Part shown: in pieces, positions 8,239 to 57,322 of the stretch
Layout of the letters: the number at the start of each line of letters is the position of its first letter
Numbering within the stretch: the first letter of the stretch is position 1
Assembly (NCBI GenBank): GCA_021295895.1
Contig: JAGWBM010000029.1
Coordinates: forward strand, 25,857 to 89,856
Source: Pseudomonadales bacterium
Lineage (GTDB): Bacteria; Pseudomonadota; Gammaproteobacteria; Pseudomonadales; Azotimanducaceae
Length of the DNA stretch: 64,000 nucleotides
Reading direction: 5' to 3'
Program-made: the position numbers and the translations under genes
Notes under the pieces: model-generated
Database searches by the model: none
Told to the model about the DNA's origin: nothing
What the model saw: the letters and a program-made list of their open reading frames with translations, nothing else

Positions 8239-9747
8239 ATGTCCGAAGAAATCCTTGTCGACGTGAATCCATTCGAGACGCGGGTTGCCTTGGTGGTGGA
8301 CGGTACGCTTCGCGAGATCCACATCGAGCGCCCGGCAGGGCGCAGCTTGCGGGGCAACCTATACCGGGGCAAGGTGGATAGGGTGGTCGGTGGCGTACAG
8401 GCCGCATTCGTCGACATCGGCTTGGGCCGGCCGGGGTTTCTCCACGTTCGGGATCTTCACGGCGTGCGCACCGAGACGGGGTGTTCCCCGCCGGATATCT
8501 TGAAGTTGGTGCGGCCCGGGCAGAGCCTATTGGTGCAGGTCGCCAAGGATCCCCTGAACGGCAAGGGCGTACGCCTTACGACGAATTTGGCTCTCGCGGC
8601 ACGTACCGTCGTGCTTCTCCCCTTGGACACGCATATCAGTGTTGCCACGCGCATCGTGGACGCGGACGAGCGGACTCGGCTCAAAGACCTCGTGACGCGG
8701 GTGCGGGCCGAGGTCGGGACGACAACCGGCTACATCGCGCGAACGGCGAGCCAATCGGCTAGCGAAGATCAGGTTCGAGCCGAGGTCGAGGATCTGGACG
8801 GTTTGTGGAAGCGGGTGTCGCGGCGCTACGGTGAGATAGCCAGTGCAATGGACGCTTCAGGGGAGGGCGCGGGGCGCATGGCCGACGCCTGTCTCGTGCA
8901 CGAGGAAGTGTCCATCCCGACGCGCATCGTGCGCGACCTGGCCGGGCCGAAAACACGCGCGATCGTGGTGAACCACACCGATACCTTCCATCGGCTCGAG
9001 GACTACATCAAACGCTGCCTTGCGGAGCTCGCTGAAGCGGTCACGTGCTACGAAGGACGTACGCCGTTGTTCGAATCACGCGGCTTGGAAGCGGCCATCG
9101 ACCGGGCGCTCGACAAGCGTGTGCCCTTGCCGTCGGGCGGCTTTCTCGTGATCGAGCAGACCGAAGCCATGGCCACCGTCGACGTCAACAGCGGGAGCTT
9201 CGTGGACTCTTCCGACCTGGAGTCCACCGCGTTCACGACCAACCTCGAGGCTGCGCGCGAGATTCCCATGCAACTCCGCTTGCGCAACATCGGCGGCATC
9301 ATCGTCGTGGATTTCATCGACATGGTCGAGGAAGATCATCAACGGGCGGTGACGGACGCGCTCGTCGGCGCCGCGTCGGACGATTCCGCACGATTCCGAG
9401 CGTCGGGGTTTTCCGAACTCGGGTTGGTGGAGATCAGCCGGCGCCGTACCCGCGAGAGCTTGGGCCGACAACTCTGCGATACCTGCGAGACGTGTTCCGG
9501 CCGCGCGTTCACCAAGTCGCCACAGAGCGCCTGCTACGACATCTTCCGCGGGATTCGGAAGCAGGCCGCCTCGGTTCGCGAGGGGGTCTCGGAGTACCTC
9601 GTAAGGGCGAGTCAGCGGGTTGTCGACCGCCTTCTCGACGAAGAGGCACCGTACTTCGCCGCGTTGGAACGCGACGTTGCGCGGCCGATTCGACTTCAGG
9701 TAGAGCCGGGCTACGCGTCCGATCAGTTCGATCTGGTGCCGCGTTGA
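8239..9747 (+). CDS. rng: Ribonuclease G (RNase E/G family)
   Basis: 502 aa. N-terminal S1 domain (GNLYRGKVDRVVGGVQAAFVDIGLGRPGFLH) and catalytic core (VDVNSG, GGIIVVDFIDM). Synteny mreBCD-rng-yhdP. Confidence 0.92.
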   Translation: MSEEILVDVNPFETRVALVVDGTLREIHIERPAGRSLRGNLYRGKVDRVVGGVQAAFVDIGLGRPGFLHVRDLHGVRTETGCSPPDILKLVRPGQSLLVQVAKDPLNGKGVRLTTNLALAARTVVLLPLDTHISVATRIVDADERTRLKDLVTRVRAEVGTTTGYIARTASQSASEDQVRAEVEDLDGLWKRVSRRYGEIASAMDASGEGAGRMADACLVHEEVSIPTRIVRDLAGPKTRAIVVNHTDTFHRLEDYIKRCLAELAEAVTCYEGRTPLFESRGLEAAIDRALDKRVPLPSGGFLVIEQTEAMATVDVNSGSFVDSSDLESTAFTTNLEAAREIPMQLRLRNIGGIIVVDFIDMVEEDHQRAVTDALVGAASDDSARFRASGFSELGLVEISRRRTRESLGRQLCDTCETCSGRAFTKSPQSACYDIFRGIRKQAASVREGVSEYLVRASQRVVDRLLDEEAPYFAALERDVARPIRLQVEPGYASDQFDLVPR

Positions 9748-12700
9748 AGTCGTTGGCGCGGGCAACGCTTGTCATGGCGACGGCCATCGCCGTGTGTTTC
9801 GCCTTGCTGCAGGTCGGGGGGCGGGTGTTGTTCTACCAACTGCATCGCTTGGAGGACACCATCAACGCGACGTTCGGTCCCGATTTCCTCGTGCAGGGGC
9901 TCGAAGGTCGCTGGCAAGGCCTCAACCCGGGGATTTTCGCCGAACGCGTTCGCCTGCCTTCGGTCGAATTGATCGGTCTCGATTTCGAACTCGACCTGGT
10001 CGAGAGCATGGGGCGGAATCGCGTGGTCGCGCGGCGGATGACCGTCGCGGACGGTCGCCTGGTCTTCGAGAAGACCGCTACGGGTTGGCAACTGGCGGGC
10101 GCTTCGGAAGGGCCCGGCCTGGATGTGTTGGCGTTGTTCGGGTTCAGTGACGAGGTCTGGGTCCGGGGCAGAGTCTTCGCACGGGAAGGCCGCCGGACCG
10201 CAGCGCTCTACGTCGAGTCGTGGCTCATCAACGTGGGTGGGGGGCATCGATTCTCCATCCGCGTACAGTCGGAACCGAATTGCACGGACTGCGCGCTCGC
10301 CGTCGAGGGGGATGTCACCGAGAACGGCCCTGGAGCGATCGAGGTTTCCGCCACGGCGTTTTCGCTCGGAAGCGAATTGGATGACATGCTTGGCCTTCCC
10401 AACTTCGAGGTCGCCCTTGCCGGAGGCTGGCGTCGCGGCTCGGATGGCAATGGCCAGGCCCGTCTCGACATCGAGTTGAACCGGATTGAAACGCCGGCCT
10501 CGGAAAGCACGCTCACCTTGGGACTCGGCGCGTGGGCGGAGGGCGGCGGATACCGGGGCCGCATCGACACGTTGTCGGTAACAAGCGGGGATCGTTCCCT
10601 CGAGTTCGACGGGGCCGGGTTCTTTGTTCCCGGCGACCTCGGTGAACCCTTCGCCGACTTGTGGCTGCCGACGTTTGCGGCCCAAGATGTGGCTGCGTTG
10701 GCGACGACCGCCCTCGGGGTGGGCCATCCCGTTGGCCGATGGCTACACAACCTGGCGCCGCAGGGTCGTATCGACGGATTTCGAGTTCGAATCGACGGCG
10801 ACGGCGTGGCGTTCGTGTGTCGGGGACGCGATGCCGCGGTCACGGCCTTCCAGGGGGTGCCCGACGCGCAACACGTCGCATTCGTGGTGAGCGGACACTC
10901 GCGTGCAATACGCATGGACGTGGACGGCTACGACCTCGCATTGGCCATGCCGGATTTCGTGTCGGCCGATGAGACCTACGTCCAAGGCGGCGGTTCGATC
11001 ACCTTCTCGTTCGTCTCGGGGAACTTCGGATTGCGCGCCGAGAAACTCTGGCTCGACCGCGGCGGCACAAGGGCCGTTGCCGACATCGCCTTGTCCCGCC
11101 CGAGGGGGTCCAGCCGCGTTCACGTCGCGGCGGATGCCAAGGTCGACCGTATCGCCGTCGCGGATGCCGAGGGCTACCTCCCCTTGAACGTTGCGCCGGG
11201 ATTTCGGGATTGGCTGAGAACGAACGTCCGCTCCGGTCATCTCGAGGACGGCCGAATCCTGTTCCAGGGTGCCGTCGGCCCAAGCGATGGTCCACCCCGC
11301 CGACATTTCGAGATCGCTGCGAGGGTCGTCGATGGGGTTGTCGACTACCACGGGGACTGGCCGACGGCGAGCCACATCCGGGCAAACCTCGTCGTAGCCG
11401 AAGGGGGAACCCGGCTACGCGGCGCTGCCAGGATCTTCGACATGGATGTCGCCGACGCCGATCTCAGGGTGCCGCCTTCGGGAGAAGAGATATCGCTGCG
11501 CTTGCGGTCCCGTACGGATGTGGGGCAACTCCTCCATTTCGTGCGCAACAGTCCGGTCCGGGATGCCATGCCGTTCCTGTCCGATGCCTGGACGGGTGAC
11601 GGACCGGTGGTTGTCGCAGCCGAGATGGTCCTGCCGTTGGCGGGTACGGGAGACGACGGCGTGCGGCCACGGAATCTGCGCGTCGAATTCGACCTGGAGG
11701 GCGCCAACGTCGACCTGGCCGACCTGGGTTTGCGATTCGACGCCATGAACGACCGGGTGCGCTACGAGTGGCCGACAAGCCTTTCCAGCGAACGGCTGAC
11801 CGGAAGACTGTTCGGTGCCCCGGTTCGTCTCGGAATCGAGTCCGACGACGAGACGATTCGATTCGCCGTTGAAGGATCGGCTACCGTCGCCGACGCCTAC
11901 CGCGTGTTGGACCTGGCGGATCCCGGTATCGTCGGAGGTCGGTTCGATTTCGGTGCCACGTTCGAGGTCTTCCCGGGCTCCGAGCATCCCGCGGAGCTGC
12001 GTATCGAGAGCGACCTGGTGGGAGTCTCGGCGGCGCTTCCAGCGCCTTTGGACAAGCGGGACGACGAGGAAAGTGCGTTGGCGGTTTCGCTGCAATTCCT
12101 CGACGACTACGTGGCCGTATCGGCGCGCTACAACGACCTCAGCGGCTGGTTGCACGTGGACGACGGCGGCATCAGGGCGGCAGCCCTGGGGCTCGGTGTG
12201 CCCGTCCCCATGGCCGACGCCGCCCAGGGCCGGGTGGTGATCGCGGGCGGTCTGGACGCCGTCAACGTGGCATCGATGGCCTCGGCGCTAGGTCCCACGA
12301 AGGGGGACGATCCCGGCTTCGCTTGGGAACTGCGCGATTTCCGCATCGGCCGAATGGAACTCGACGCCCTGGAACTCGCGGACCTGCGTATCGACGGGTC
12401 TGGTGAAGGCGGCGAGATCCGCCTGACGCTGGCCGGCAGGGAGCTGCATGGCACCTTGGAAAGATCCGGCGATGCGCCTTGGCGTCTCAACCTCCCGGAA
12501 CTCAACGTGCCCACCTCGCCGTCCGACGACGCGATCGCCCTGGATCCCGCCGCCATCGATCAACTCATTGCCGCCGATGTGGTTCTCGGGAAGGTCTTCG
12601 TCGGTGAGGACGACTACGGCACCTGGCGGTTCGGGCTCCGACCCGTTCCCGAGGGAATCGAGTTGCACGACGTTGTCGCCGAACTCCGCGGGCTCACCAT

Positions 12701-13484
12701 CGAGGCCACGGCGCCGGCGCTTTGGAGCCGCGACGGAACGACGCGCTTCGAGGGCACGGTCAGAGCGGGCGACCTGCTGGAGGTGCTGCCGCTTTGGGAC
12801 TTCGTACCCAGCGTGGAGTCGGAGAGTTTCGCGGCCCAGGGGAGCGTGTATTGGCCCGGCTCGCCCCTCGAGTTCGACTTGGCCACGCTGTCCGGCGACG
12901 CCTCCCTGGATCTGACCAATGGGCGGTTCCTGGACGTCGAGCAGGGGGCCGGCGCGGCGCGCATCATGAGCCTCATCAACTTTTCCACCATCGTCAAGCG
13001 GATGAGTCTCGACTTCACGGACGTGTTCGGACGGGGCGTCAGTTTCGACCGTGCACTGGCGAAGCTGTCGGTGACCGAGGGTCGCGCCCGATTCGACGGG
13101 CCAGCCAAGATCACCGGCACCGGCTTGCGGTTCGATATCGACGGTGCGGTCGACTTTGCGAGTGGGGCGCTTGACTACACCATGGTTGTCACGCTGCCGC
13201 TGCACGCCAGCTTGCCTTGGTACGCCGCCTTCCTCGCCGCGTCGAACCCGCTCGCCGCGGCGGGTGTTCTGTTTGGCCAGCAGGTCCTCAAGGATCCCAT
13301 CAAACGCTTGTCGAGTGTCGACGTCGTCGTCAAGGGGACCTACGACGATCCGGAAGTGATGCTGGTGAGCAATTCGTCGGCGCTGGCGGCAACCGCGGAG
13401 GACAATGTGATTGCCGACGATGCGAATGCGGCGCCGGAGGAGTTGGATGACGGCAAGACGGAACGGGGGGATACACCGCAGTGA
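9744..13484 (+). CDS. yhdP: YhdP/AsmA-like large envelope (phospholipid transport) protein
   Basis: Frame of ORF 9045..13484. The part overlapping rng is Arg-rich nonsense. TTG 9744 (TTGA overlap with the rng stop) or ATG 9774 precedes the N-terminal TM segment [20 protein letters not shown]. About 1246 aa. Synteny rng-yhdP-tldD. Confidence 0.85.
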
Positions 13485-14941
13485 CAACGAACAACGTGAT
13501 CGTATCGGCGCGGCAGGCGCTATGGGATCCCGATGAGATCGGCGAACCGGAAATAACCGGCATGCTCGGGCGCCTGTCCGCGAAGGACATCGACACGGGG
13601 GAGCTGTTCTTCCAGTTACTTCGCCACGAGGCGTGGGGATTGGAGGATGGGAAGGTCAAGAGCGGTGCCTATAGCGTCGACCGCGGTGTAGGCGTGCGGG
13701 CGATCAGTGGAGAAAAGACCGGCTTCGCCTACGCCGACAATATCGCGTTGCCGGCGCTCAGCGAGGCCACGGAAGCCGCGCGGAGCATTGCACGTACCGG
13801 CCACGGCAGCCGGACGGGTGTGCTCACGGGAACCACCGCAGCGGTACGTTACGCGGACGTCGACCCGATCGCTTCGGCACCCGAGGATGCCAAGGTCGCG
13901 CTGCTGCATCGCATCGATACCTTGGCCCGCAGTCTCGACCCCCGGGTCAGCGAGGTCGTCGTGCGGGTCTCGCTGGATTGCGAGGTCAACCTGGTCGTGA
14001 CGACGGATGGATTGATGAGTGGCGACTCGCGGCCGATGGCGAGATTCGACGTCATGGTTCTCGCGGAGCAGAACGGTCGACGCGAACGCGGGTCGAGTGG
14101 GGGCGGCGGGCGCTTCGACACGGGATGGTTGTTCAACACGGACGCTGCGGACGAGTATGCCCGGGAGGCCGTGCGCATGGCTCTCGTCAATCTCGACGCG
14201 GTCGACGCGCCGGCCGGTGCGATGCCGGTGGTGCTCGGCCCGGGTTGGCCGGGGGTTCTGCTGCACGAGGCGGTGGGACACGGTTTGGAAGGCGACTTCA
14301 ATCGCAAGGGCACGTCGGCATTCGCGGGCCGGATGGGCGAGGTTGTCGCCTCGGAGCTGTGTACGGTGATCGACGACGCAACCCTGGCCGACCGACGCGG
14401 TTCGCTGTCCGTGGACGACGAAGGGACGCCGGGGCAGCACACCACGCTGATCGAGAACGGCGTTCTGGTCGGCTACATGCAGGACAAGCACAACGCACGG
14501 CTCATGGGAGCCAAGAGCACGGGCAACGGCCGTCGGCAGTCCTATGCCTACCTGCCGATGCCGCGCATGACCAATACCTTCTTGAGGCCGGGCGCCAGTG
14601 AACCCGACGACATCATCGCCAGTGTCGACAAGGGCGTCTACGCGGTGAGTTTCGGGGGCGGCCAGGTGGACATCACCTCCGGCAAGTTCGTGTTCTCCGC
14701 CACGGAGGCGTACCTCATCGAGGGCGGCAAGGTCGGACCGGCGATTCGCGGTGCGACGCTGATCGGCAACGGCCCGGAAGTCATGCAACGCGTGTCCATG
14801 GTTGGAAACGACTTCAAACTCGACGGCGGTGTCGGCATCTGCGGCAAGGACGGCCAGACCGTGCCGGTCGGGGTGGGTCAGCCGACCCTGAAGATCGACG
14901 AGATCACGGTGGGCGGGACCGGCGCGGGCGCCACGTCGTGA
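13481..14941 (+). CDS. tldD: Metalloprotease TldD
   Basis: 486 aa with the [11 protein letters not shown] metal-binding motif. GTGA overlap with the yhdP stop. Confidence 0.93.
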
Positions 14942-17752: not shown

Positions 17753-19555
17753 CTACGAGCCCGTGTCGTCCGAGTCCGGGTTGTCCTTGCCTGCCATCTG
17801 GGCCTTGATGAGATCGCCCAGGGTCGTGGGACCGGGGCGCTCGGGCTGGCTCTTCTGGTAATCGCGGTGGGCCTGTTTCTCGTCGTCCTTCTCGCGGGCC
17901 TTGATGGACAGGCTGATGCCACGGTTCTTGCGATCGATGCTGATGATCTTGGCCGTGACCTCGTCACCCACCGACAGGGCGGTCCGGGCATCCTCGACGC
18001 GATCCGCGTAGATTTCGGATGCCTTGAGCAGGGCATCGACCTCGGGGGCGAGTCGGACGAGAACCTCCTGTGGCTCGACGGCGACGACCACGCCGTCGAC
18101 GATGCTGTTGCGGTCGTGCTCTTCGATGTAGTCGTTGAATGGATCGTCGTCGAGTTGCTTGATGCCAAGCGCGATACGCTCGCGTTCGGAGTCGATCGAC
18201 AGGATCACGGTGTCGATTTCCTCGCCCCGGCTGTAACGGCGTACCGCCGTTTCACCGGGCTCCTTCCAGGAGATGTCCGAGAGATAGACGAGACCATCGA
18301 TGCCGCCGTCGAGTCCCACGAAGATGCCGAAGTCGGTGATCGATTTGATGCGTCCGCGGATACGGTCGCCGCCTGAATGCGTTGCGGCGAACTCGTCCCA
18401 GGGATTGGTGCGGCATTGCTTGATGCCCAGCGAAATGCGGCGTCGGTCTTCGTCGATGGACAGGATCATGACTTCGACCTCGTCGCCAACGGCAACCACC
18501 TTGGACGGGTGCACGTTGCGGTTGGTCCAGTCCATCTCGGAGACGTGCACGAGGCCCTCCACGCCTTCTTCGATTTCCGCGAAACAGCCGTAGTCCGTCA
18601 GGTTGGTCACACGCGCGACGACACGCATCCCCTGTGGATAGCGGCGTGCGATGTCCACCCACGGATCGTCGCCGAGTTGCTTCATGCCGAGCGAGACTTT
18701 CCGGTTCTCCCGGTCGAAGCGGAGGATCTTGACGGGCACTTCGTCGCCGACGTTTACCATCTCGCTGGGATGGCGGACCCGACGCCAGGCCATGTCGGTG
18801 ATGTGCAGGAGGCCGTCGAGTCCACCGAGGTCGACGAATGCGCCGTAGTCGGTGAGATTCTTGACGATGCCTTTGATTTCCTGTCCTTCGTGGAGGGAGG
18901 CGAGCAACGCTTCGCGTTCGGCGCTGCTCTCTTCTTCGAGTACCGCCCGACGTGACACCACCACGTTGTTGCGGCGCTGATCCAGCTTGATGACCTTGAA
19001 TTCCAGCGACCGACCCTCGAGGTGCGCCGTCTCGCGCAGGGGTCGGATGTCGACCAGGGAGCCGGGCAGGAAGGCGCGGATTTCGTTGATATCGACGGTG
19101 AAGCCGCCTTTGACCTTGCCGTTCAGAATGCCCTTGATCACATCGCCCGTCGAGAAGGCGTGCTCGAGCATTTGCCAGGATTCGGCGCGGCGGGCTTTCT
19201 CGCGGGACAGCCGGGTTTCTCCCCAGCCGTCGTCGACGGTTTCCATGGCGACCTGCACCTGGTCGCCGACTTCCAGGCTGAATTCGCCGTCTTCGTTCAG
19301 AAACTGGCTGCGCGGGATGACGCCTTCCGACTTGAGTCCGGCGTGGACGAGTACGAATTCCTTGTCGATCTCCACCACGGTGCCGGTAACGATCGACCCG
19401 GGCGCCATCTCCAGCGTGGCGAGGCTCTCCTCGAACAACGCTTCAAAGCTCTCGAGGGCGAACTCCTCGGCCGTGGTCGGCGGCACCGTCGTTGACGGCG
19501 GCGGCACCGTCGTCGGCAAGCTGTCCACACCTTCTCCAGTCAGTTCTTCGGCCAT
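17753..19555 (-). CDS. rpsA: 30S ribosomal protein S1, with a 33-aa N-terminal extension
   Basis: 600 aa with six S1 repeats. The conserved start [11 protein letters not shown] sits at residue 35. Confidence 0.95.
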
Positions 19556-44679: not shown

Positions 44680-47399
44680 TCAGTTTCCGGTGCGGCGCTC
44701 GAACACCACCAATAGGCTTGACTCGACTATCTCGAAGTTCGGGAAGAACACGAGCTGTTGAGACAGGCCGGCAAGGTAGACGTGCCGACCATCCGGGCTG
44801 GCGATGTACGACAGCACGTCGTCGATGTTCGGCAGGTCGTTTCCGAAGGTGTCCGTTCTGAACCCGGTCAGGGCCAGCAAGTCCCCGGGAAATACCGAGC
44901 TGAAACCGCCGACCTGAACCGTGTAGAGATAGCTCGAAGCACGGCAGGCGATGTCCGCCGCCAGAACGTCGTGACGGGCCAACGAGTGGCCACAGCTTGC
45001 GAAGAAGGACAGGAACGGTACGAACGAATCCTGTTTTCCGACAAATGACGGATTGGCGGGATCCGAGAGATCGAACGCGGCGGTATCTCCACCGCCTCTG
45101 CCCGACGACACGAAGAGATGTGACGTATGCACGGCGAGTCCTCGAGCCTGCGCAAGTCCCTCCACGATCACTTCATCGTCGCCGACGGTGCTTCCCTCGG
45201 CGACGGTCGACACCATGTCGAGTGCTCCGGTTTCGGCGTTCCGTTCGAAAGCGATTAACTGCGGTCTGCCTGCAAAGCCCGCTGTGACGGCGCACAGGTG
45301 AGAACCGTCGGCGGTCATCGCGGCTTTCGTGACGCCGTCGATCATGATCTGTTCGACAGACGTCGACGCGGTGTGCTCGTCGGTGAACTGGTAGGTCTCG
45401 ACCATGAAGGTGGGCATGACGATGTGGAACCGTCAATCAGCACTGCTTCTCTCGGGCATGGGCCGCCCTCCACCCTGCCCGCGTACTCGATGCCCCCACC
45501 GTCGACGGGGGTAAACCGCGCCCAGCCGTCGCAGGAAACGACGAGTAGTGCCGAGCCCGTTTGGTCCCACAACAGCTGGATGTCGGGATCTTCGAGGGGG
45601 AACTCGGCGAGTATCTGCACGAGGTCAGTTCACCGGTGTTCGCGTCTCGCCCGAAGACCACGATCCCGAACTCGGAGGCGACATAGAGTTCCGTTCCGTC
45701 GGCATTGAAGGCTTGGGCGCCCAATCCGTCGAATTGCGTTTCCGACCCGACGACGATCCCGGGCTGGTTGTCGGGGATGACTTCTACGAAGCGCAGTCGG
45801 GCCGGTGGGCTTGCGGGGCTCCAGGACAACTCGAAAGGCCCTCGTTCACGTCCACCGAAACCGTTCCTGTCGTAGATGTAGCTTCCGAGGCGGATGACGT
45901 ATCGAACGCCGGCTTCGGCCTCGAAGTTCATGGCGGCCTCTCCGGGGGCTAAGCTGCGGCTCGTGTGCAGCAACTCGAGGTTGCCGTCGGCGCCCGTCCG
46001 GTAGATGGCGAGCTTGATGCCTTCGCTCCCCGCCACCACGAACCGCGTCCAGCCGCTTTCCGCGGGTTCGAAGGTCCACCACAGTGAGGAGTCGCCCAAC
46101 GCGCCCGTACGCTCACCGGGTTTGTTGGTGGCGAACTTGTTGGAGCCGGTAACCGACCCGGACTCGCCCATCAGCGCGATGGCGTTGGCCAAGTCGTCGT
46201 TTTCGGGTGTCTTGCCCCACTGCAGGACCATTTCCACCGGATTCACGGAGGTGTGGGCGGCGTCCCCCGGTAGCCCCAGTGCGAACGCATACGACTCGCC
46301 CGCCTCGGTATCGAACGCCAGCCGCAGGTCGGTGTTGGCGGCGACGTTCGTAGCCACCGGTTCGAGTGCGGCGAGTTCCGTGCCTTTGAATACCGACATC
46401 TGCAACGGGGCATCGCCGATGTCACGAGAGAATCCGGGGTCCACCTGCCAGGTGTAACGGCCACCGGCGGCGGGTTGGTGCCAAACGTACCAGGCCGTCC
46501 GGACGCCGGACTCGACCGGTTCGCCGTGTTCCACCGTCAGCAAGTCGAAGTTCGCGTGGGTTGGCGCGAAGTTGCCGAGCACCGCCTGCGCGGAGGCGAA
46601 GTCGTCATCGTCCGGATCCTCCCGCATGCCCGGCACCCAGGACAGGGTGAACTCGGTGCCGGAGTAGTAGGCGGAAGCCGACGCGATGGCGATGTAGTAC
46701 TCGACGCCCTGTGTGGCGGGGAACACGGCATCGCCGGGAACTTGGTCGCAGGAGCGGACATCAGCCGGGCGTCCGACACGGTTTCGCCGGTGAAGACCGA
46801 AAGCGCCAAACCGCGCCGGTTTACCGAGAATTCCCAGTCGCCGGTCGTCGGCGCTGTCCAACGGTACCAGACGCTGGCTCCCCAGCCGTGGAGGACTAGG
46901 GGGTGTACGCGCTTGTGTGGCCGATGAACTTGCCGGGCTCGATTGTCGCCGCCTGGTTGTTGCCGGTCACGCTGCCGTTCTCGCCTTCGATGATGGCGGC
47001 GTGGGAGAAGTGGTCGTTCTCGGGTGCCGCAGCCGGCCCCCATTTCACGGTTAGTCGGGGCGTGGACGCCTGCCGCAATTCGAAGTTGCCCTCTTCGTCC
47101 TCCTCTACATGTGTGAGTCCGGTGGGGTGAATCGTTAGCCGGACTCGGTAGGTCTCGCCCCGTTCGGCATGGAAGGCGAGCCCGCCGCCGTCGAGTCCAG
47201 CCAAGGGTCCATCGGGAAAGGCCTCGATCACGACGGAGTCCGAATAGTCGTCCAGATGCGACCGCACAATCGTGAACCGGACCAGACCATGGTCGGGCGC
47301 CGTCCACAGGTACCACAGCGAGCGGTACCGCTGCGGGTGGCTAGAACCAACCGGGATGGGCGGTTCACCTTGGTCAACGGCCGCCACTGGAAATGGCAA
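44680..47399 (-). pseudogene. Remnant of a large modular secreted/surface protein (four ~130-aa tandem modules + lactonase-like beta-propeller); 5'-truncated with at least four frameshifts
   Basis: Five consecutive ORF pieces in different frames: 46896..47399, part of 46537..47316, 45437..46861, 45342..45620, 44680..45417. Their translations join seamlessly. There is an in-frame stop at 47406-47408 and no N-terminal signal. Confidence 0.75.
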
Positions 47400-47690
47400 C
47401 GGCCGCTACTCGGACGGCCGCTACTCGGAGACGGCCGCTACTCGGACACACACCACCAAACGTGATGTGACCGTGACATCACGCGTCCGGTGGAATGCTT
47501 CGCTCGGAGGGATGCTTCACTCGGAAGGATGCTTCACTAGGCCGCCCCTCGGACACACACCACCAAACGTGAAGTGACCGTGACATCACGCGTCCGGTGG
47601 GATGCTTCACTCGGAAGGATGCTTCACTCGGACATGCTTCACTCGGACACACACCGCCAAGTGTGATGGGACCGTGACATCATCGTGGCT
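47399..47690. repeat. Composite tandem array: three units of (3 short 13-17-bp repeats ending in ACTCGG + a 48-bp core with a hairpin)
   Basis: Cores at 47446-47493, 47553-47600 and 47647-47690 (ACACACACCACCAAACGTGATGTGACCGTGACATCACGCGTCCGGTGG). Short repeats are GGCCGCTACTCGG x3 and GGATGCTTCACTCGG x5-6. Confidence 0.9.
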
Positions 47691-47812
47691 ACCGGTGATT
47701 TCTCGCCGGTTTTTCGGGGTCTCGTTCCTACCCACTTCGGCGCTTCCGTCCTACGCCGCATATGGTGGATGGCGGGCATAAATCGCCGCCTGGCTGGGGG
47801 ACACTATTCGGC

Positions 47813-48772
47813 ATGGCAACGCCCCGCAGACTGCTAGTGGATCCCGAGAACGCGTGCGCCTATCACTTGGCGTCGAAGTGCACTCGGGGCATGTTCCTAT
47901 GTGGTTGGGATCGTCTGACGCGCAAACAGTACGGACACCGCCGGCGCTGGCTGGTCAAGCGGGCCCGAATGCTGGCGTCGTGCTTTGCGGTCGACTTGCT
48001 CACTTACACGGTGATGAGCAACCACTTCCACTTGATAGCGATCTACGACCCGAAGGCTAGCGAGACCTGGTCCGACCAAGAGGTGGCACGCCGTTGGGTC
48101 GACGCGTTTCCGCCGCGCAAGCCGAGTTCGAGGGTCCGCGGCAAGTTTGCAGCGGCAAGGATGTGGGAGCTACGCAAGGCCGAACGGAGAACACTGATGT
48201 TGTCCGACGCCGACCGGCTTGAGCGGGCTCGGTGCACGTTGGGATCGCTGTCCTCGTTCATGAAGCACTTGAAGCAGCCGATCGCACGGCGGGCGAACCT
48301 CGAGGACGACTGCGAAGGGCATTTCTTCGAGCAGCGGTTCTATTCCGGAGCACTCTTGAACGAGAAGGCGATCATCGCGGCCTCGGCGTACGTGGATCTC
48401 AACCCGGTGCGCGCCGACCTGGTGGAGCGGCTCGACGAATACGAGGAAGCATCGATTGCCGAGCGGGTCCGGGAAGATAGCCCGGAGCGGCTGAACGATT
48501 ACCTCCGTCCTATCGCCTCGGGACTCGGCCCGCAGCAGTATCGGTCATTCGTGGACATCACTCTCGGCGACTACGTGGGTTTGCTGGAGGGGATGATCGC
48601 GGCACAAACGACACCCGAGAAGAAAACCGTTCAATCCGATCGGATCTCGGATTGGCGGGCACGGATGTTCGCGCTCAGCAAACGACAGCGCGCCTACGGT
48701 TCGGCGGAACAGCTTAGGGCATGGTCAAGCGAGCGCGGCCTGCGGTGCCTCGAGACGCCTCTGCCCAGCTGA
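47813..48772 (+). CDS. Long Y1 HUH transposase-like protein (IS200/RAYT superfamily)
   Basis: MATPRRLLVDPENACAYHLASKC..., HUH motif MSNHFHLIA, GHFFEQRFYSGALL, catalytic-Tyr motif AYVDLNPVRADLV. 319 aa from ATG 47813; the ORF is open from 47762. Confidence 0.75.
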   Translation: MATPRRLLVDPENACAYHLASKCTRGMFLCGWDRLTRKQYGHRRRWLVKRARMLASCFAVDLLTYTVMSNHFHLIAIYDPKASETWSDQEVARRWVDAFPPRKPSSRVRGKFAAARMWELRKAERRTLMLSDADRLERARCTLGSLSSFMKHLKQPIARRANLEDDCEGHFFEQRFYSGALLNEKAIIAASAYVDLNPVRADLVERLDEYEEASIAERVREDSPERLNDYLRPIASGLGPQQYRSFVDITLGDYVGLLEGMIAAQTTPEKKTVQSDRISDWRARMFALSKRQRAYGSAEQLRAWSSERGLRCLETPLPS

Positions 48773-51294: not shown

Positions 51295-51344
51295 CTCGGA
51301 CACACACCACTTCGGGCAAGATCACTATGATGTCATCCACCGAG
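51295..51344. repeat. Solo copy of the CTCGGACACACACC repeat family
   Basis: CTCGGACACACACCACTTCGGGCAAGATCACTATGATGTCATCCACCGAG, about 70-120 bp upstream of gspE. Terminal CTCGG/CCGAG inverted repeats. Confidence 0.7.
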
Positions 51345-53155: not shown

Positions 53156-53200
53156 CTCGGACACACACCGCCTTTGGTGATGTTGCGGTGGTGTCACCCG
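53156..53200. repeat. Solo copy of the CTCGGACACACACC family with its own hairpin
   Basis: CTCGGACACACACCGC-CTTTGGTGATGTT-GCGGTGGTGTCAC in the 382-bp gspE-gspF spacer. Confidence 0.7.
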
Positions 53201-55233: not shown

Positions 55234-55335
55234 CTGCGTGCGTGCGCGCTGCTCGCGGCTTGTACATATACATATATAAATGGGTACTCTCGATACAAAT
55301 CCGTCGCGAAGACCTCAACGGGGCGTTGGGGCTGC

Positions 55336-55557
55336 GGGACGGGACAAGCCCGTCCCCTACGGTCGTGACCCATGCGTCCGTGTGTGTGCCCGGCGGGGCG
55401 AACGGGTCCGTAGGGGCGACCCTTGCGGTCGCCCGAATCGCGAGGTGGCGGCTGTGGGCACGGGACGGGACAAGCCCGTCCCCTACGGTCGTGACCCAAA
55501 TGCAGGCGTGTGTGCCCGGGTGGACCGGATCCGTGCGGACGCCCCTTGCAGACGCCC
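55336..55557. repeat. Four-REP cluster (B-A-B-A') = tandem duplication of a ~125-bp composite unit
   Basis: B at 55336-55360, A at 55410-55434, B at 55462-55486, degenerate A at 55533-55557. Each B is followed by TCGTGACCCA...GTGTGTGCCCGG. Confidence 0.88.
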
Positions 55558-55981: not shown

Positions 55982-56480
55982 ACGCCCCAAAGTTCACCGA
56001 AGGCGGACAAGCTGGCGACACACCGTCCCCGCGGTGCGCGTGGCCAAGCCCACGTTCCGGCGGCGCACCGCCGGCTTCACCCTGCTCGAGAGCATCGTCG
56101 CACTCGCGATCTTCGCGGCCAGCGGCATGGCCCTCTACGGCCTCTTCAACACCAACCTGATCACCCTCAACCGCACCGCGGACGTTTCCCGCCAGGTGGT
56201 TGTGGTGCGCAATGCCATGGACTACCTGTCGGCCATCAACCCCCACGACAAGCCCGAGGGCGAAGTGGAACTCGGCGGCGTCGACGTCGCCTGGCAATCG
56301 AACCTCGTCGAGCCGATCCGTCACGGCCAGAACACCATCGGCGGCCGCGGCGACTTCGATATCGGACTCTACGAGGTCGAGTTCGCCGTCACCGACGACG
56401 GCCGCTCCCTCGGCACCTGGCGCATGCGCGTCGCGGGCTACGAGAAAGTCCGCGGCATCTTCCCGGGTCAGGATTTCTGA
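55971..56480 (+). CDS. gspI: Minor pseudopilin GspI/XpsI
   Basis: AG|FTLLESIVALAIFAASG prepilin motif. Small GspI-like size. Candidate starts are ATG 55971 or GTG 56034/56040. Confidence 0.75.
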   Translation: MRPKRPKVHRRRTSWRHTVPAVRVAKPTFRRRTAGFTLLESIVALAIFAASGMALYGLFNTNLITLNRTADVSRQVVVVRNAMDYLSAINPHDKPEGEVELGGVDVAWQSNLVEPIRHGQNTIGGRGDFDIGLYEVEFAVTDDGRSLGTWRMRVAGYEKVRGIFPGQDF

Positions 56481-57322
56481 TGCCCCCCCGGAACCTGCAC
56501 CATCAACGTGGTCACCTCAGCCGCGCAGCCGGCATGACCCTCGTCGAAACCCTGGTCACCTTCGTCATCCTGGGCTTCCTCACCACCCTCATCCTGCAAG
56601 CCGTCGGCTTCTTCGCAGCCCGCTACGAGGGCGTCCAGCGCGTGCACCGCGTCGCCGCCCTGGAGTCGCTGCAGCAAAACTGGTTCGCGACCTCCGTGCA
56701 GGGCTTCGTTCCCTACGGCGTCCACGCCCGCCGCTTCCAAGGACAACCGACCCGCTTCGAGGGCATGACCCTGGAACCCCTCCATGCCCAAGCCGGCACG
56801 CCGGTCACCGTGCGCTGGTCCATCACCGAAGACGGCGTGCTCTACTCGGAGTCCCTCGCACCATCGGTCCCCGGCATCGAATGGCCCATCCGTGGCTCGG
56901 ACACTTCCGTACGACCCCAATCCCGTCCTCAAGCGGACACACGCGAAATTTTCGATATCGATTTGAGATCACGCCGTTTGGCACCCGGGTACCCCGACGC
57001 ACGCCAGGGCGATCTCGTTTTCCACTACGCCGACGCGTTCGCCAACTGGTACGACCACTGGCCCCCGCGCCCCGACGCGGATCCCGTGCCCGGCACCGCA
57101 CCACGGCCGGGGCAGGCGGCACCCCAGAGCATCGACGACCTCATCGACGCGCTGGCGGAGACGGCCACGGTCAGGGTCTCGTCGGACGATCCGCTCCTCG
57201 ACCCGGCGAACGACTGGACCCCGCGTCTCATCCGCCTCTTCTCCGCCGAAGAAGGCACCATCTGGCTCGCCCGGGTGGAGCCGTCCGCCCGTCCGCTGCT
57301 TACCGACGTGGACGTCGAATGA
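56480..57322 (+). CDS. gspJ: Minor pseudopilin GspJ/XpsJ (long, 280 aa)
   Basis: AG|MTLVETLVTFVILGFL prepilin motif. The ATG shares one nt with the gspI stop. A C7 tract directly follows the start codon. Confidence 0.7.
   Translation: MPPRNLHHQRGHLSRAAGMTLVETLVTFVILGFLTTLILQAVGFFAARYEGVQRVHRVAALESLQQNWFATSVQGFVPYGVHARRFQGQPTRFEGMTLEPLHAQAGTPVTVRWSITEDGVLYSESLAPSVPGIEWPIRGSDTSVRPQSRPQADTREIFDIDLRSRRLAPGYPDARQGDLVFHYADAFANWYDHWPPRPDADPVPGTAPRPGQAAPQSIDDLIDALAETATVRVSSDDPLLDPANDWTPRLIRLFSAEEGTIWLARVEPSARPLLTDVDVE

Follow-up and report, generated by a model that had tools for sequence, protein, structure and literature searches.

A composite tandem array beside a Y1 (HUH) endonuclease gene in a Pseudomonadales bacterium is probably the amplified recognition region of that enzyme

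What is the composite tandem array that occupies positions 47399-47690 of a 64-kb stretch of Pseudomonadales DNA (contig JAGWBM010000029.1; the window, below), and does it belong with the gene for a 319-aa Y1 (HUH) endonuclease that follows it? The initial annotation, made from the letters of the window, had linked the array to this enzyme, and had described it as three units of iteron-like short repeats and hairpin cores without known precedent. We conclude that the array probably arose by tandem amplification of the left-end recognition region of a Y1 endonuclease gene, one of the TIRYT/RAYT kind that belongs to TnpA-Y1 subclass 2.3. As judged from sequence comparison, the array most likely serves the neighbouring enzyme as its DNA target and does not represent a new kind of element. 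The part of the array that is invariant across relatives is an 8-mer, GGACACAC, which stands at the 5' end of the repeated cores (extended, GGACACAC(AC), 8-10 nt) and is called the tag below. By analogy, the tag would be the recognition or cleavage motif of the enzyme, the counterpart of GTAG in repetitive extragenic palindromes (REPs).

The tag accompanies the gene family. In an unbiased count of the 500 nt 5' of 12 Y1 genes, GGACACAC was the top upstream 8-mer, present in 11 of the 12 loci and co-oriented with the Y1 gene. This set takes in L012 and L135 (58-59% protein identity), L009 (a 54% paralog) and three loci from a DNA-side scan, and the association spans 54-88% protein identity and three gene contexts, namely type II secretion system (T2SS)/cytochrome c, CNNM/S8 and CNNM/TonB. 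The loci hold 6-67 tags, against ~0.5 per strand per locus expected by chance. The proximal tag lies at -166 to -183 from the ATG in nine loci and at -126 and -219 in two others; the position in the window, 168 nt 5' of the ATG, is common to the relatives. All syntenic relatives have at least two repeat units 5' of the Y1 gene, with differing sequences. The tag reads TCGGACAC in six of eight cases in the window, GGGACAC in L004, L006, L008 and L009, and GGGGACAC in Planctomycetota.

The same pairing was recovered from the DNA side. GTDB species genomes were scanned for three tags at short distances and at least 120 blocks of 8 kb matched; among the 120 matches listed, nine blocks contained a Y1 homolog. 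Six blocks were inspected: three from Pseudomonadales metagenome-assembled genomes (MAGs), one from a Fimbriimonadaceae MAG (L026) and two from Planctomycetota (L118 and L127, 37-39% identity). In all of them the array lies directly 5' of the Y1 gene, in the same orientation. Published frequencies (PMC6006769) suggest about one such gene per thousand random 8-kb blocks, an inferred estimate and not a computed control. The annotated link between array and adjacent gene is thus upheld across genomes, gene contexts and phyla.

On the protein side, we used 44 JGI metagenome loci with enough flanking sequence on both sides of the gene. An identical GGACA 9-mer was found upstream on the plus strand and downstream on the minus strand in 20 of the 44 loci, and in none of the 44 in the control orientation. 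The form GGACACAC occurs in metagenome loci at least 44% identical to the query, and more distant loci carry GGACACCCA, GGACAGGCA or GGACATCCA. Inverted tags also lie 3' of the Y1 gene in L009, L012, L135 and L037. Two loci, L158 (122-1447) and L159 (4905-6231), have in common a 1.33-kb unit of 90% identity, whose likeness starts 8-9 nt before the left tag and stops 6 nt past the inverted right tag. Since the flanks are unrelated, this tag-bounded unit is a discrete mobile element in that clade. The window clade has tags 5' of the Y1 gene only, and the right-hand inverted copy is absent.

Within the window, Tandem Repeats Finder bears out the three-unit structure and its spacings, with periods of 107 bp (2.0 copies, 91% matches) and 94 bp (1.9 copies, 85% matches). 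Repeats of 15/17 bp are nested within it (47399-47447, 47495-47538 and 47600-47649), and a gapless repeat finder agrees. The tags start at 47444, 47551 and 47645, which fits the core starts annotated at 47446, 47553 and 47647, and the array ends 122 bp before the Y1 ATG (47813), as had been estimated (~120 bp). The annotated three short repeats per unit hold for units 1 and 3, whereas unit 2 has a fourth copy of the unit-1 type. In the window clade a 3' box, (G)TGATRT-N4-GTGANNTCA, comes after each tag, offset from it by 17/18 or 26/27 nt. The array is laid out as follows.

47399..47447, plus strand: short direct repeats of unit 1, three copies of ACGGCCGCTACTCGG, a junction stutter of S8-internal ACGGCCGCCACT and the tag start (CGGA).
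47444..47493, plus strand: element copy 1, with tag GGACACACAC (47444-47453), an 18-nt offset and 3' box GTGATGTGACCGTGACATCA (47462-47481) containing a perfect 7-bp inverted repeat.
47494..47550, plus strand: short repeats of unit 2, three (G)GATGCTTCACTCGG-like copies and one GGCCGCCCCTCGG of unit-1 type.
47551..47600, plus strand: element copy 2, with tag at 47551 and 3' box at 47569-47589 (one stem mismatch).
47601..47646, plus strand: short repeats of unit 3, three copies of GATGCTTCACTCGG.
47645..47694, plus strand: element copy 3, gene-proximal, with tag 168 nt 5' of the ATG and 3' box at 47663-47683 (two stem mismatches).
47695..47812, plus strand: leader from the proximal element to the ATG, with blocks CCGGTGATTTCTC, GTTCCTAC and GGGGACACT..GGCATGG conserved in the syntenic clade.
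47813..48772, plus strand: Y1/HUH gene, 319 aa, TnpA-Y1 subclass 2.3-like, with motifs NHFH and YVDLNP; syntenic and under purifying selection.

No sigma-70 promoter or intrinsic terminator was found in the array, and the leader has no detectable sigma-70 consensus promoter.

Is the adjacent gene a functional Y1 endonuclease? The catalytic motifs H71-F72-H73 and Y193-V-D-L-N197 are invariant in 30 homologs (56-88% identity). The AlphaFold model of the protein (pLDDT 85.3, pTM 0.87) has as its best fold match in the PDB the structure 4ER8, in which E. coli TnpA-REP is complexed with a REP hairpin (E 4.7e-5, TM 0.68 on target), followed by the TnpA proteins of ISDra2 and IS608; a PDB sequence search with the same protein gave chance-level matches only. 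The matches to Pfam Y1_Tnp (21.4 bits, cut-off 23) and NCBIfam REP_Tyr_transpos (46 bits, cut-off 80; residues 145-211 only) are below the cut-offs and fall separately on the HuH half and the Tyr half of the protein. Such a split fits a long insertion separating the two motifs, and in the model the stretch from the HuH strand to the strand preceding the Y helix contains helices at ~88-164, with a C-terminal helical tail at 214-307. Subclass 2.3 proteins are characterized by NHYH, YVDLNP, a median length of 325 aa, an insertion of ~55 aa between beta3 and alphaC, and a C-terminal tail (PMC6006769). The window protein has NHFH (Y to F), an exact YVDLNP, 319 aa, and both insertion and tail; it thus fits subclass 2.3 in motifs, length and insertion, an assignment made by motifs.

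The Y1 gene occupies the same site in relatives of 61-88% protein identity. To its left lies the gene of a large S8 peptidase or, in relatives that lack S8, of an M28-type peptidase, and to its right a cytochrome c/CN-hydrolase/aminotransferase/T2SS block; in the window an 83-bp spacer separates it from the convergent cytochrome c gene. The dN/dS values against syntenic orthologs are 0.13-0.25. Synteny and dN/dS together indicate a maintained chromosomal gene rather than a recent insertion, and the 64-kb window contains no second copy of it. An inverted short repeat, CCTAGGTGAAGCACC, at ~48826 on the 3' side of the gene was tried and dropped, having neither a tag nor a counterpart in relatives.

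Does the array act through a hairpin? The initial annotation placed a conserved hairpin with a 7-bp stem in each core, which did not survive closer analysis. The stem GTGATGT/ACATCAC is perfect in core 1 only, while core 2 has one mismatch and core 3 two, all uncompensated. Plus-strand single-stranded DNA folds of the three cores are not better than shuffles (z = -0.9, -0.4 and +0.2), and on the minus strand core 1 folds modestly better than its shuffles (z = -2.05). Over 32 related boxes, the proposed stem pairs in 73.8% of cells versus 70.1% in shuffles (7 of 500 shuffles reach 73.8%), and with the stem register slid by 3 the pairing is 69.5% at an unchanged covariation score. In distant relatives the likeness of left and right ends is confined to ~10-12 nt at the tag, with no hairpin in common. 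The hairpin was therefore rejected as the key feature by the near-zero z-scores, the covariation test and the tag-only likeness; a hairpin in the boxes is possible, but the sequence conservation does not single out its stem.

The same data bear on the idea that the array is a transcribed element, either a 5' leader or a small RNA, working via RNA structure. Such an element would explain why the copies are co-oriented with transcription, and the core 1 minus-strand fold is in its favour. We nevertheless regard it as very improbable, given that the plus-strand folds are no better than shuffles, that covariation support is weak, and that inverted copies 3' of the gene are unlike a leader RNA. A known RNA family was likewise discarded as an explanation: no Rfam family reached its gathering score anywhere in the window.

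How did the short repeats arise? The left edge of the array coincides with the end of a deletion in the neighbouring pseudogene.

44683..47375, minus strand: S8 peptidase remnant, residues ~929-1834 of 1834 aa in several frames, with the 5' half and the promoter deleted.

Both tblastn with the 1834-aa L002 protein and DNA alignment to L002, L003 and L004 place the end of S8 homology at ~47375, ~24 bp left of the array, so that the annotated abutment of array and truncated pseudogene is borne out. The short repeat of unit 1, ACGGCCGC(C/T)ACT-CGGA, is S8-internal sequence joined to the first bases of the tag; the window has three copies and a partial one at 47377, and L001 has two. Duplication of whatever sits directly 5' of the tag recurs at other loci. 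Because the repeats are built from arbitrary 5' flank, S8 sequence included, they are stutter products and not designed iterons, which disposes of the iteron interpretation.

Comparison of related strains indicates that the array length varies. The window and L001 are ~99% identical, yet the array differs by 37-bp and 105-bp indels, and the whole ~105-bp unit of element copy 2 is absent from L001. Between L006 and L007, which have identical Y1 proteins, indels of 20 and 24 bp fall exactly at tags. Outside the array, L001 has lost a further 767 bp of the S8 remnant (window 45128-45895).

These differences could also be read without any enzyme. In that case the tags would be fossil left ends of an old IS-like element, changed by replication slippage only, and the Y1 protein would have no current role. 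Slippage does alter tandem repeats without an enzyme, strain indels also occur off the tags, the window clade has no right end, and the hairpins of cores 2 and 3 are decayed and uncompensated. Yet GGACACAC is kept in the elements of relatives, in dozens of copies, although the Y1 orthologs differ at a dS (synonymous divergence) of up to 1.6, whereas neutral DNA would diverge. The tag-to-box spacing is held in two fixed classes, the Y1 gene is under purifying selection with invariant catalytic residues, and the new duplications begin in sequence with almost no prior homology. An inert relic is therefore doubtful, and we place it slightly below the regulatory explanation discussed next.

Are the tags confined to the array? 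The 14-mer CTCGGACACACACC occurs five times in the 64-kb window against 0.93 expected. The initial annotation had noted two solo copies, which are present at 51295 and 53156, but a third, more diverged one at 56935 had escaped it.

51298..51335, plus strand: solo element (tag and 3' box), 118 nt 5' of the T2SS-E gene; all syntenic relatives have it at the orthologous site.
53159..53196, plus strand: solo element in the gap between T2SS-E and T2SS-F, where relatives have 1-3 copies.
56935..56971, plus strand: diverged solo element, in frame within a 280-aa open reading frame (ORF; 56480-57322) of the T2SS cluster.

Plus-strand GGACACAC is found at orthologous T2SS sites (upstream of T2SS-E, in the E/F gap and further into the cluster) in the window, L001-L004 and L006-L008. 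All six plus-strand tags of the window are within 47.4-57 kb; the sole other GGACACAC in the window, on the minus strand at ~6770, is at chance level (expected ~1.4 per strand). The element at 56935-56971 encodes ..RPQADTREIFDIDLRSRRL.. and is retained in L001, L002 and L006.

Several observations weigh against the tags being the substrate of the enzyme. Confinement to 47.4-57 kb is unlike the distribution of genome-wide REPs, and the hairpin expected of Y1 substrates is weak here. Strain indels, though enriched at tags, also fall elsewhere. Most of the listed triple-tag matches, from unrelated taxa, are probably ordinary tandem repeats, and in L022 and L062 tag arrays occur without a Y1 gene in the same 8-kb block. 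Finally, the tags of the window clade are co-oriented with downstream genes at conserved positions, to which a regulatory element would conform. Arrays far from any Y1 gene also occur in a related genome.

The main rival explanation is a double-stranded cis-regulatory array in which tags and TGAT-N-TGANNTCA boxes are operator or promoter-proximal sites and copy number tunes expression. The binder would be the Y1 protein as autoregulator or another factor, and the targets would be the Y1 gene, the T2SS operon and the ancestrally divergent S8 gene. The roughly fixed distance of the proximal tag from the ATG agrees with such a role, as do the orthologous intergenic sites of co-oriented window-clade copies 5' of T2SS-E and T2SS-F, and a paralogous Y1 gene is again found beside a T2SS cluster. 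The 3' box consists of two TGAT-type half-sites 11 bp apart, the second being a TGA-NN-TCA palindrome; paired half-sites of this kind are typical of dimeric DNA-binding proteins. Regulation does not account for the inverted downstream copies, which 20 of 44 relatives have and which never occur in the control orientation, for a tag-bounded unit that acts as a mobile element, for arrays of up to 45 tags or for tags within an ORF. Moreover, the array has no sigma-70-like promoter and the association persists where no T2SS genes are nearby. We consider a regulatory array unlikely. The two explanations are compatible, since the promoter of a transposase gene often overlaps with an end of the transposon.

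If the array is the enzyme's recognition region, its history may be pictured as follows. In the wider family, the Y1 gene lies between a tag of ~10 nt (GGACA and 3-5 clade-specific bases) and an inverted downstream tag, and this unit can move. In the window lineage the gene has become fixed and vertically inherited, with only the left-hand tags kept, each with a clade-specific box. The enzyme would bind the tag on single-stranded DNA, nick beside it and religate; joining of neighbouring tags, or slippage at the nick, would then duplicate or delete the DNA between tags and the DNA just 5' of a tag. Expected outcomes would be the short repeats ending in CGG, the unit duplications of 107 and 94 bp, the copy-number differences between strains, the solo elements between genes nearby and, plausibly, the truncation of the S8 gene by a deletion beside the array. 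Nicking and rejoining of single-stranded DNA at tags is established for IS608 TnpA and E. coli TnpA-REP (PMC3597680, PMC3479197); for the window enzyme we infer binding and the position of cleavage, and also that changes in the array are the work of the enzyme and not of slippage alone. It can be further speculated that the Y1 protein, together with its tags, edits DNA locally: nicking and rejoining would continually alter array length and occasionally delete adjacent promoter DNA of the T2SS cluster and its large secreted protease. This proposal we hold to be distinctly improbable. If true, it would provide heritable, reversible variation of expression, that is, phase variation by a domesticated HUH enzyme and not by slippage or an invertase.

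Is such an arrangement new? The absence of precedent stated by the initial annotation has to be withdrawn, because Y1 genes flanked by inverted non-GTAG repeats (TIRYTs and TIRtrons), many sharing GGGGWSAS, were already described in 2013 by Di Nocera, De Gregorio and Rocco (PMC3733652), in whose account the repeats can form small families and occur singly, as dimers or in clusters. The likeness extends to a RAYT-like Y1 gene with short non-GTAG repeats and to inverted flanking tags in relatives of the window gene (L009, L012, L135, L037 and 20 of the 44 metagenome loci), and may extend to the motif, as GGGGACAC/GGGGACAG fit GGGGWSAS; the arrangement of L158 and L159 is a TIRtron in the sense of that paper. 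The window locus differs in that its tags are on the left side only and amplified to a composite array, with no inverted right copy, and in that its tag is TCGGACAC and not GGGGACAC. The likeness of left and right flanking tags covers only ~10 nt, and the window protein is of subclass 2.3, whereas TIRYTs were put in subclass 2.1 (PMC6006769).

With the REPtrons of E. coli and Pseudomonas (PMC3333891, PMC3116915) the locus shares a single-copy, vertically inherited, domesticated Y1 gene beside cognate repeats, a short invariant 5' tag akin to GTAG, and TnpA-REP as the best structural match. In contrast to REPtrons, the tag is GGACACAC and not GT[AG]G, sits 18 nt from the inverted repeat and goes with a weak hairpin. 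The repeats are direct rather than inverted and upstream only, the copies are clustered within ~10 kb of the 64-kb window instead of dispersed, and the protein, at double the length, has an inserted helical region and a tail at the C-terminus. The IS200/IS605 elements IS608 and ISDra2 are similar in having a Y1/HUH enzyme, subterminal recognition sequences a few nt inside the ends and a conserved distance from left end to ATG. Unlike in these elements, the ends consist of an inverted short tag, not of two differing co-oriented hairpins, and tnpB is missing; the window copy has no right end and is not a bounded mobile unit, which is found only in distant relatives.

The array therefore belongs to a known kind, in which a Y1 gene is flanked by its cognate repeats (REPtron, TIRtron). 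What is new within the searched literature is that a conserved tag is tied to subclass 2.3, that the composite array is one-sided and tandemly amplified, that the short repeats originated by stutter and that the copies cluster round one locus; a literature search for the tag sequence returned primer-type matches only. The 2018 survey by Quentin, Siguier, Chandler and Fichant found ~15% of strains to have subclass 2.1 and ~3% to have subclass 2.3, and its searches, automatic and manual alike, detected no REP-like sequences near genes of these two subclasses (PMC6006769). Differing from that account of subclass 2.3, a conserved tag occurs with the gene in nearly every locus examined here. Subclasses 2.1 and 2.3 are among the largest groups of domesticated Y1 proteins, and without a known DNA partner their function could not be tested so far. 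The conserved flanking tag of ~10 nt is a candidate for this partner and a concrete substrate for binding and cleavage assays, and it would link the GGGGWSAS observation of 2013 to subclass 2.3. How the enzyme affects the genome is suggested by the tandem stutter arrays and by the truncation of the adjacent gene.

Further tag arrays were observed in relatives. In L010, 67 tags were counted in 21 kb, with very large intergenic arrays at 9468-9831, 13406-14358 and 17848-19367 of the same T2SS locus. An intergenic array of 18/24-bp units in this locus of L008 (19066-19312) contains 13 tags; the longest arrays comprise 45 tags. Runs of N (scaffold gaps) in L006 at ~9700-9800 and ~13656-13807 coincide exactly with tag arrays, and such arrays are probably under-reported in short-read assemblies. 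In L009, on the same 7.2-Mb contig as L002, the paralogous Y1 gene (54%) lies directly 5' of a second T2SS E-F-G cluster (77/61/60% identity; 10001-14845), with two inverted tags and an apparent tRNA gene between them. This arrangement may reflect an ancient block duplication or a functional link. In the Planctomycetota loci L118 (5900-6420) and L127 (3860-4100, minus strand) a CGCCAGAAAAA motif follows the tag arrays shortly before the start codon.

The window also contains GTAG REPs, from which the array had been annotated as distinct, and separate GTAG REP families were indeed found elsewhere in the window. They fall into two families, GTAGGGGACGGGACAAGCCCGTCCCCTAC ('double-foot' type; ~16372, 34514, 38490, 40041, 44645, 54740, 55335 and 55460) and CGTAGGGGCGACCC (~8151, 16321, 22278, 37419, 39914, 55408 and 58498). 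These REPs occur throughout the window and in either orientation, hence the genome probably has a classical RAYT elsewhere. Between window 55440-55461 and L001 17515-17617, a copy-number difference of ~100 bp coincides with the GTAG REP pair at 55335 and 55460.

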